Program-made: the position numbers
Virus record (IMG/VR): IMGVR_UViG_2713896778_000023
From: a virus
Lineage: Duplodnaviria > Heunggongvirae > Uroviricota > Caudoviricetes
Length of the DNA: 4,877 bases
Reading direction: 5' to 3' (one strand)
In this document: piece after piece, positions 3,001 through 4,877 of the stretch
Position numbering within the stretch: the stretch's first letter is position 1
Layout of the letters: each line of letters opens with the position of its first letter

Positions 3001-4877
3001 TGATTCATGCCATTGAATACAGAACTGATAATGCTGTATCGATGTTTGGCGGACGACCAGCCAATCACATTAAAGTTATCAACGTTCGTGGGGACAGTAT
3101 GTGTCCAACCATTGAGCCAGGAGATCTCATCTTCGTTGATGTCAGTATCAATCAGTTTGATGGAGATGGTATCTATGTATTTGGTTTTGATGATAAAATT
3201 TATGTCAAACGACTACAAATGATACCTGACAAACTACTGGTGATTTCTGATAACCAGATTTACCGTGAATGGGGAATTACCAGCGAAAATGAACACCGGT
3301 TTATGGTCTTTGGAAAGGTCTTAATCAGCCAGTCACAAACCCTTAAGCGACACAATTAACCCTTACCTCCTCATCAATTAGCCACCCGAAGGTGGCTTTT
3401 CATTACCCATAAAATTGCACATCTCGCAATAAAAAGACTTGCATGATACGCAACTTCATTTTATCTTTCTTTCCAGACCAACAAACAAGGTACTAACAAA
3501 ATTTGGTTGTAACACGGCGTATGGCACATGTGTCGTTAGCGGTCTGGGGACGTTAAAGGGGACAATCCACTCCTTGCTCGGGCAAACAAACCAGGTAGCC
3601 GGAATGTGCAAGTCAATGATGATGCTGATAAGACGCCTAACCAGCGTGGCGATCCGGTTTGACGCCTGGGAAGAGACCAGGGTGCAACGATGAGGGCATT
3701 TATGGAGCCGCGACAAAGTGTGGTGCCGTAACTGGCTAAGTGCTCTCAGCGTTGTGGTAATCCGCGAAATGGCGCGGCGGTAAGTATGGCGGGGTTACTC
3801 TTTCCCCGTTGAGGACACCGGATTGTCAGGTTGACCATACGCCTGAGTGACAACCCCACCACAACAGCCACTGCTTTGGCGGTACCAGTTTGTACACTTT
3901 CTTCCGGCTGGTACCGCTCTTTTTACAAAACAGAGAAGAGCATCACCGGACGACGGGCTCATAACCCAATCCACCCGGGCGGATGCCACCGCAGGTGTTC
4001 TTCTCTGTTTTGTGGAGAAACCAACCGACCTTGCAGGGTCGATATGATGAGGAGCAGTGCAGGAAGAAATGGCTAACGAATTTCGTGATCTGCTTGTTGA
4101 GAAATTCAAAGACAGCAAAGTAGAAACCTTTATTGGTACTTTTACCGCCTGATTTCCTTACTGCAAATGCCCCTGCGGGGGCATTTATGGAAACATAATT
4201 GACTCAATAATCGCCTGATGGCGAGGGTTTTCTTTAACCAAAATTCTGCGCGGTGCAGCGCATATACGTGGAGAACAAAATGTCATTTATTAAAACTTTT
4301 TCCGGGAAGCATTTTTATTATGACAGGATAAATAAAGACGACATCGATATTAACGATATCGCGGTTTCCCTTTCAAATATCTGTCGCTTTGCCGGTCATC
4401 TTTCGCACTTCTACAGCGTCGCCCAACATGCGGTTCTTTGCAGCCAGCTGGTACCGCAGGAATTTGCTTTTGAAGCATTAATGCATGATGCAACAGAAGC
4501 GTATTGCCAGGACATCCCCGCTCCACTGAAACGCCTTCTTCCTGACTATAAACGGATGGAAGAAAAAATTGACGCCGTAATCCGTGAGAAATACGGGTTA
4601 CCCCCAGTTATGAGTACGCCCGTGAAATATGCCGATCTTATCATGCTGGCAACCGAACGCCGCGATCTCGGGCTTGATGATGGCTCTTTCTGGCCTGTAC
4701 TGGAAGGCATCCCGGCAACAGAGATGTTCAACGTGATTCCACTGGCACCTAGCCATGCCTACGGGATGTTTATGGAACGTTTTAACGAGTTATCGGAGTT
4801 ACACAAATGCGCATGAATGTTTTCGAAATGGAAGGGTTTCTTCGCGGGAAATGTGTACCGCGAGATCTGAAAGTGAA

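Follow-up and report, generated by a model that had tools for sequence, protein, structure and literature searches.

The sequence considered here is a 4,877-nucleotide (nt) stretch (IMG/VR record IMGVR_UViG_2713896778_000023), referred to in its entirety as the window, which is 100% identical to a prophage in Escherichia coli O121 strain RM8352. It corresponds to the immunity region of a lambdoid prophage of SfII/mEp460-like type, and the immunity regions of mEp460, PhiR40_1, PhiR47_1, PhiR55_1, PhiR63_1, phiSTEC1575-Stx2k, 1720a-02, Stx2a_1447, WGPS2 and SfII are 91–97% identical to it. A gene for a CI-type repressor is read from the plus strand, and a cro-like gene, the first gene of the early 'rightward' operon, is read from the minus strand (Table 1). 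The repressor gene ends in an intrinsic terminator whose stem is conserved among relatives and whose loop changes, and which is annotated as a terminator in SfII. Just beyond this terminator lies the subject of this analysis, a plus-strand promoter resembling the early left promoter (PL) of phage lambda, accompanied by two palindromic sites resembling its left operators (OL). From the pattern of sequence and its conservation we consider it probable that positions 3414–3467 constitute the OL/PL unit of a lambdoid immunity cassette.

Table 1. Features of the window, with coordinates in window positions (OR, right operator; PR, rightward early promoter; PRM, repressor maintenance promoter; ORF, open reading frame; HTH, helix-turn-helix).
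Feature	Position	Strand	Basis or remark
OL-distal operator candidate, perfect dyad TTGC-ACATCTC-GCAA	3415..3429	.	centre at about −52 from predicted start
OL-proximal operator candidate, perfect dyad TTGC-ATGATAC-GCAA	3439..3453	.	about −35 to −21 of promoter
PL-like early promoter, TTGCAT-N17-TATCTT	3439..3467	+	weight matrix, 9.07 bits
OR3-like operator candidate, perfect dyad TTGC-TTAATGC-GCAA	2632..2646	.	from first base of −35 of cI-facing promoter
OR1-like operator candidate, imperfect dyad TTGCG-TGATGA-GCAT	2584..2598	.	over −10 and start site of cro promoter
PRM-like cI-facing promoter, TTGCTT-N17-TGTAAT	2632..2660	+	7.0 bits
PR-like cro promoter, TTGCGC-N17-TAATAT	2597..2625	-	−35 at 2625-2620, −10 at 2602-2597
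CI-type repressor gene, 230 amino acids, HTH and LexA-like S24	2667..3359	+	Pfam
Intrinsic terminator of repressor gene, 7-bp stem and T run	3380..3401	+	terminator scan
cro-like HTH gene, 86 amino acids	2309..2569	-	ORF, Pfam HTH_3; annotated Cro in related phages
ymfL, CII-like	2316-1765	-	Pfam Phage_CP76, a CII family
Conserved structured RNA element, about 190–260 nt	3500..3757 (core 3515-3681)	+	5' end of PL transcript
Two terminator-like hairpins in leader	3879..4020	+	inverted-repeat search; one also in terminator scan
yfdQ 3' remnant	4057..4152	+	partial pseudogene in RefSeq
C4 antisense RNA	1235-1322	-	Rfam, 82.8 bits; cro operon
isrK RNA	1347-1423	-	Rfam, 56.6 bits; cro operon

The initial annotation had placed a PL-like promoter with embedded dyads at 3410–3470, and this assignment is borne out by the promoter being the best candidate of its region and by the conservation of its hexamers and of the dyad arms. 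In a weight-matrix scan it scores highest between 3360 and 3560 and ranks ninth among approximately 47,600 candidates in the window, shortly after the cro promoter, with the −35 hexamer at 3439–3444 and the −10 hexamer at 3462–3467. It sits 80 nt past the cI stop codon and 40 nt past the cI terminator, transcription is predicted from its sequence to start near 3473–3475, and in intact relatives PL is followed by a same-strand series of genes that begins with yfdP, yfdQ and yfdR and continues through exo, xis and int. Neither hexamer varies among the 12 loci that can be aligned across this segment, and Citrobacter amalonaticus, Buttiauxella and Trabulsiella have TTGCGC-N17 followed by TATCAT, TATCTT or TATGGT at the same place even though the surrounding DNA has diverged.

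The two left dyads, ATTGC-ACATCTC-GCAAT at 3414–3430 and cTTGC-ATGATAC-GCAAc at 3439–3453, lie where they were originally described, with the −35 hexamer TTGCAT inside the second, and a further dyad of the same form (TTTGC-TTAATGC-GCAAT, 2631–2647) does overlap the TTGCTT (2632–2637) of the cI-facing promoter. Exact matches to TTGC-N7-GCAA number four in the window where 0.23 are expected, a count that none of 200 shuffled sequences reached, and three of the four are found in the two short non-coding segments on either side of the repressor gene. No spacing other than N7 is enriched, since every other one from N0 to N15 yields at most a single match. Phage mEp460 shares this immunity, and its complete genome (44.5 kb) contains six matches where 1.7 are expected; three of the six are the same regulatory sites. 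The fourth exact dyad of the window, at 981–995, is inside rha, at a point where alleles of that gene meet in a mosaic; most phages with this type of immunity have it, but it is missing from cdtI and from PhiR47_1, whose identical immunity rules it out as a required site, and it is either a chance occurrence or an accessory site.

Conservation was assessed across 17 loci whose repressors are 66–100% identical to that of the window, of which nine belong to phages or prophages in annotated collections and eight come from genomes of Shigella, Citrobacter, Pseudescherichia, Klebsiella, Buttiauxella and Trabulsiella. A search of relatives for the dyads, a check of the kind that had been proposed, recovers two after the cI terminator, 53–57 and 76–81 nt past the stop codon, in 15 of these loci, and the upstream dyads start 83–84 nt and 35–36 nt before the cI ATG in all 17. 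The 16 arm positions of the left dyads are without any variation in the 12 alignable loci, compared with variation at nine of the 14 spacer positions (Fisher p = 1.4 × 10−4) and 24 of the 41 other positions in 3400–3470 (p = 3.9 × 10−5). The arms of the OR3-like dyad are likewise invariant among relatives, and its spacer varies at three positions. The distance from one left dyad to the other shifts by 0–2 bp while the N7 within each dyad is constant, and the binding unit is therefore TTGC-N7-GCAA; the register GCAA-Nx-TTGC across the two left dyads was rejected, as its Nx varies from 7 to 9 nt among relatives and N7 does not. Of the consensus first proposed, ATTGC-N7-GCAAT, the inner arms and the seven-base spacer stand and the outer A and T do not, the outer base being variable, so that as judged from these alignments the refined core of the candidate operator is TTGC(R)-N5-(Y)GCA(A/T).

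SfII, mEp460, 1720a-02, Stx2a_1447/WGPS2 and the PhiR phages carry the same cassette with identical dyad arms and represent the same immunity type; their PL/OL segments are 77–97% identical to that of the window, and the intergenic region reaches 99%. The records of SfII/mEp460-type phages annotate the genes and, for SfII, the terminator, with no operator or promoter annotated at the OL/PL place. The block 2300–3480 was found in 1041 of 5426 complete E. coli genomes searched and is full length in 1040, and this nearly invariable completeness implies that OL/PL is inherited with cI and cro as one cassette.

The cI/cro intergenic region contains the same half-site at both of its promoters. The cro promoter has the top weight-matrix score between 2540 and 2700 (9.36 bits), and the OR1-like site that lies over it is an addition to the initial annotation, from which it was absent. 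This dyad, the one at −83 from the cI ATG, ends in GCAT in all 17 loci because two of its bases are shared with the −10 hexamer. The cI-facing promoter ends 6 nt before the cI ATG (2667), and its (A/C)TGTAAT and spacing are conserved in diverged loci; with a start predicted at or next to the A of the ATG, its mRNA would be leaderless. In all loci shown, the only invariant sequence between the two intergenic dyads is TTGCGCAAGT (2618–2627), at the −35 of the cro promoter, which may be a third, non-canonical site. A self-complementary TTGCGCAA at 2618–2625 lies at the same −35 and is conserved as TTGCGCAAGT, and an alternative weak site of the form TTGC-GCAAGTn-G(C/A)(A/T)T would have one base in common with the next operator. 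Two other candidates were rejected: the palindrome CGCAAA-TAT-TTTGCG (2608–2622), which lies at the exact midpoint as an OR2 would, is confined to the E. coli and Citrobacter group and is not found in diverged loci, and of the long arms TTGCGTGA...TCACGCAA (2584–2612) only TTGCG is conserved in SfII and beyond.

The repressor matches Pfam Peptidase_S24 (6.5 × 10−19) and HTH_26/HTH_3, as well as a PHROG for transcriptional repressors. Its translation contains an Ala99-Gly100 cleavage site, Ser144 and Lys181, the features of a LexA/CI-type SOS-cleavable repressor, and self-cleavage is predicted. Among solved structures, the N-terminal part is closest to dh434 (entry 1sq8, a designed 434-repressor variant; E = 2 × 10−4) and the C-terminal part to UmuD. 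BLASTP gave no alignment between the N-terminal domain of CI and Cro; in a MAFFT alignment the two are 25–27% identical, with Ser, Arg, Glu and Gln invariant in the recognition helix (xSRxE..Q), and by this motif they probably recognise one and the same half-site, as their lambda counterparts do. The suggestion that the left promoter is controlled by the same repressor is supported by comparison, in the sense of a repressor specificity shared with the cI/cro intergenic operators; since the Cro-like protein very probably uses these sites too, it is better worded as control by the cI/cro pair.

Phages of other immunity types show what changes along with the dyads. Ayreon, cdtI and Stx2c_PV98-693 have the leader in common with the window from about 3500 and encode unrelated repressor and Cro proteins; homology with the other types begins only at about 3500. 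After the cI terminator the Ayreon-type phages have TTGACA-N17-ATAATG with a dyad TGTACC...TACA, which matches TTGTACC-N5-GGTACAA between their own cI and cro. In mEp390, a third type, GTAAG-N4-CCTAC dyads on both sides of a TTGACA precede the same leader element, and its own intergenic region has GTAGG-N4-C(C/T)TAC dyads. The general forms are thus TGTAC-N7-GTACA for the Ayreon type and GTARG-N4-CYTAC for mEp390. The operator sequence is therefore specific to the immunity type, with each of the three types having its own dyads at both places. Between the CI proteins of the window and Ayreon, similarity is limited to 39 residues of the C-terminal S24 domain and does not extend to the DNA-binding part; no alignment was obtained between their Cro proteins. 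YmfL is 97% identical between the two, and since it stays constant while the dyads change with the type, the dyads follow the cI/cro pair and not YmfL. Position, orientation, promoter score, invariant arms, persistence down to 66% repressor identity and co-variation with immunity type all agree with the proposed reading of the left sites as an OL analogue.

Downstream of PL the plus strand has about 600 nt with no credible ORF, followed by the yfdQ 3' remnant and yfdR. No gene for an N antiterminator is found after PL in this stretch, and in relatives the first gene is yfdP. In the window a 1162-bp deletion relative to intact relatives, with its junction at 4057|4058, has removed yfdP and reduced yfdQ to its last 31 codons, so that the PL leader now runs directly into what is left of yfdQ and then yfdR. 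The leader (3474–4068) folds far better than shuffled controls (z = −5.7) and is pieced together from three segments that differ in their distribution; SfV has only the last 180 nt of this leader. The first segment, beginning about 40 nt past the predicted PL start, is a structured RNA element whose core recurs in P1 and P7 (between trnI and ban, upstream of ban), phiV10, SPN1S, a Klebsiella phage and mEp390, and which is present in at least 120 IMG/VR contigs. It follows cI genes of at least three immunity types, and in epsilon15-like and Klebsiella phages it abuts tRNA genes. Among the matches listed, a same-strand tRNA gene abuts the 5' or 3' end of the element in 41 of 120 contigs, and in most of the other listed contigs the element comes after a cI-like gene. 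When 43 variants less than 93% identical are aligned, they support a structure of four helices (P1, P3 and P4 among them) and a possible pseudoknot pairing 3524–3529 with 3604–3609. In this structure 96.5% of cells are paired, compared with 27–40% in slid controls, 12 pairs are changed on both sides, and double-change cells number 91, where shuffles give 29 ± 5 and none of 500 reaches the observed count; the element also carries invariant blocks such as GGUAGCCGGAAUGUGCAAG.

The element matches no family in Rfam 15, the leader does not match the Rfam prophage small RNAs AgvB, AsxR, Pas and STnc100, and a search of the window for tRNA and transfer-messenger RNA genes found none. Its profile also finds no match in 14 kb of HK022 (record positions 20000–34000, from int to the replication genes), a comparison that captures sequence-profile similarity only, and by analogy the element could still be a functional counterpart of the HK022 put RNA. 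Between the element and the downstream genes are two terminator-like hairpins, one with a perfect 10-bp stem (3879–3888/3908–3917) and a 19-nt loop followed by TCTTTTT, the other with 25-nt arms (3925–3949/3989–4013) that are 84% complementary and followed by TTTTGT; judged by their form they could be terminators that early-left transcription must pass. In relatives both hairpins are just upstream of the yfdP start. The sequence CGCTCTTTTT at 3915–3924 is a hairpin tail and not a convincing boxA, no formal nut-site search having been made. A minus-strand ORF of 107 amino acids (3798–4118), which corresponds to cdtI orf40 and is the only leader ORF with a PHROG match (phrog_3651, a family of unknown function; E = 1.8 × 10−51), lies across the leader with its hairpins and, in relatives, extends over the beginning of yfdP as well; it may be a recurrent miscall over non-coding DNA rather than a gene.

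Several other explanations of the dyads and of the promoter deserve consideration. Lambda CII recognises TTGC repeats (TTGC-N6-TTGC) that straddle −35 hexamers. The −35 hexamers of both dyad-bearing promoters in the window are weak and begin with TTGC, and YmfL falls in the CII family Phage_CP76, so that the TTGC repeats could be sites at which YmfL activates two weak promoters. The window repeats are inverted and not direct, however, and at the same two places Ayreon, in spite of its nearly identical YmfL, has TGTAC/GTACA-type dyads with no TTGC; YmfL was accordingly rejected as the binder of the dyads, whose sequence tracks the cI/cro pair across types, and we regard an activator role as highly improbable. 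Within the cI/cro pair, the dyads might chiefly or only serve the Cro-like lytic repressor, with CI recognising something else. The two proteins share their recognition-helix motif, sequence alone cannot tell which of them binds, and the perfect intergenic dyad lies over the cI promoter, where lambda Cro binds first. Pseudescherichia and Klebsiella spallanzanii have no recognisable cro, though, and keep both upstream dyads beside an intact repressor gene, which favours the repressor as the constraining partner. A prophage must moreover silence its early-left promoter, and 3400–3470 contains no other conserved repeated element. To our knowledge CI and Cro share operators in all lambdoid phages studied, and this too weighs against sites for Cro alone, which we think very unlikely. 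That the palindromes are chance occurrences in AT-rich intergenic DNA, with no functional promoter at 3439–3467, might be argued from the failure of a strict consensus scan to list the promoter and from the dispensable dyad in rha, but it is hardly credible given the enrichment of the dyads, their invariant arms and variable spacers, their fixed positions in loci as distant as 66% in the repressor, and the type-specific dyads of two other immunity types.

A different alternative concerns the output of the promoter and is compatible with the operator reading: the main product of PL may be the structured leader RNA itself, most transcripts ending at the hairpins before yfdP, so that PL would be the promoter of an RNA gene and not a classical mRNA promoter. 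The covarying element soon after the predicted start, the two hairpins between it and yfdP, the tRNA neighbours that an independent RNA gene would be expected to have, and the O121 prophage, in which yfdP is deleted and the leader intact, are all in its favour. Set against these, termination at the hairpins is a prediction only, and in intact relatives no other promoter is evident for the yfdP–int genes, which have the same orientation and short gaps; we consider this alternative unlikely.

Returning to the OL/PL reading, a number of observations weigh against it. The strict (4-of-6) consensus scan omits the promoter because its −35, TTGCAT, matches TTGACA at only three of six positions; two of the 17 loci lack one or both downstream dyads, and both of these resemble truncated prophage remnants; and the dyads are asymmetric, one arm usually being TTGCG and the other usually TTGC(A/T). 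Canonical dyads in the intergenic region number only two, with 48 bp between their centres, and a lambda-like OR2 midway between them is not conserved in diverged loci, so that the switch is not a simple copy of that of lambda. The OR3-like dyad is placed on the cI-facing promoter with the same geometry as at PL (about −35 to −21), which would mean repression and not activation of cI transcription. A search of the literature, finally, found no binding, footprint, start-site or reporter data for this immunity type. Repressor binding, cooperativity, the PL start site and repression are what we infer here.

On the OL/PL reading, sigma-70 RNA polymerase would start an early plus-strand operon from TTGCAT and TATCTT, which in intact relatives runs from the leader RNA through yfdP, yfdQ and yfdR as far as xis and int. 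The two 15-bp TTGC-N7-GCAA dyads would be occupied in a lysogen by dimers of the 230-residue HTH/S24 repressor. The proximal one extends over the −35 hexamer and 9 bp into the spacer, and its occupation would exclude polymerase; the distal one is 22–24 bp upstream, centre to centre, the distance of cooperative lambda repressor dimers. Through the same half-site the repressor would also act at 2584–2598, on the −10 and start of the cro promoter, and at 2632–2646, on the −35 of the cI promoter, and its RecA-stimulated self-cleavage would free all three promoters. The Cro-like protein, having the same recognition-helix motif, probably uses the same sites. As for what follows initiation, the leader RNA might have a put-like role in cis and carry polymerase through the two hairpins before yfdP, or alternatively might be released as a stable RNA with a role of its own. 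The combined proposal that the first product of PL is an undescribed pseudoknotted RNA acting in either of these ways, and that the immunity region is a two-operator switch with purely negative autoregulation of cI, is speculative, and we consider it unlikely.

The arrangement has much in common with OL/PL of lambda: the site comes directly after the repressor gene, with cro behind it in the direction of transcription, the operators are immunity-specific palindromes with half-sites in common with those between cI and cro, promoter hexamers and operator overlap, adjacent operators are spaced 22–24 bp centre to centre (20–24 in lambda), the repressor is an HTH and S24 self-cleaving protein, and the cI maintenance mRNA is probably leaderless. 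It differs in having two operators at the left promoter where lambda has three, a 15-bp TTGC-N7-GCAA operator where that of lambda is 17 bp and of the TATCACCGC type, and a structured leader of about 600 nt without ORFs in place of an N gene after the promoter. It also has two intergenic dyads 48 bp apart, with no conserved OR2 and a repressing geometry on the cI promoter; a lambda-type tripartite OR, with three operators at 23–24 bp spacing, was not found in the cro–cI intergenic region. Of the 434 and P22 systems, 434 supplies the nearest structure for the DNA-binding domain, the designed variant dh434 (1sq8), and the 434 operator (ACAA-N6-TTGT) likewise has short inverted tetranucleotide arms around a variable centre that is not contacted, whereas here the arm sequence differs, the centre is one base longer and identity to the 434-derived domain is low. 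Both 434 and P22 have three operators on each side, and the number and layout here are different. The SfV/Ayreon/cdtI-type and mEp390-type cassettes share the order of cI, terminator, dyad-flanked promoter and the same leader, as well as the CII-like gene ymfL, and differ in their unrelated repressor and Cro DNA-binding domains and in their operator sequences. SfV reportedly has an additional transcription-termination immunity, in work attributed to Roberts, Allison and Verma (J Gen Virol, 2007).

Farther along the cro operon, the C4 and isrK RNAs both lie inside a 1149-nt coding sequence annotated in RefSeq as 'Rha family phage regulatory protein' (window 620–1768), and the 5' third of that coding sequence is therefore probably an over-extended ORF call. 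A run of 50 Ns at 1674–1723 makes part of this long ORF unreadable. The true start of the Rha/antirepressor gene is probably near 1180 (MATISTL...), and the gene would then probably be under P1-like C4 control, a second layer of immunity.

We have described here a probable OL/PL unit of ordinary lambdoid design, conceptually no departure from the lambda paradigm, with a new operator sequence; our literature search found no experimental description and nothing on the operators of SfII/mEp460-type immunity. The operator sequence is thereby defined for an immunity type present in about one-fifth of complete E. coli genomes, the cassette of cro, cI and OL/PL being carried by 1040 of the 5426 genomes and by the Shiga toxin (Stx) 2a-converting phages Stx2a_1447 and WGPS2 as well as SfII and mEp460. 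Together with the promoter map, the operator consensus makes the prediction of homo-immunity between prophages testable, and lends itself to the design of reporters for prophage induction and to explaining the induction behaviour of Stx phages. The leader RNA is the part of the locus that could be new biology.

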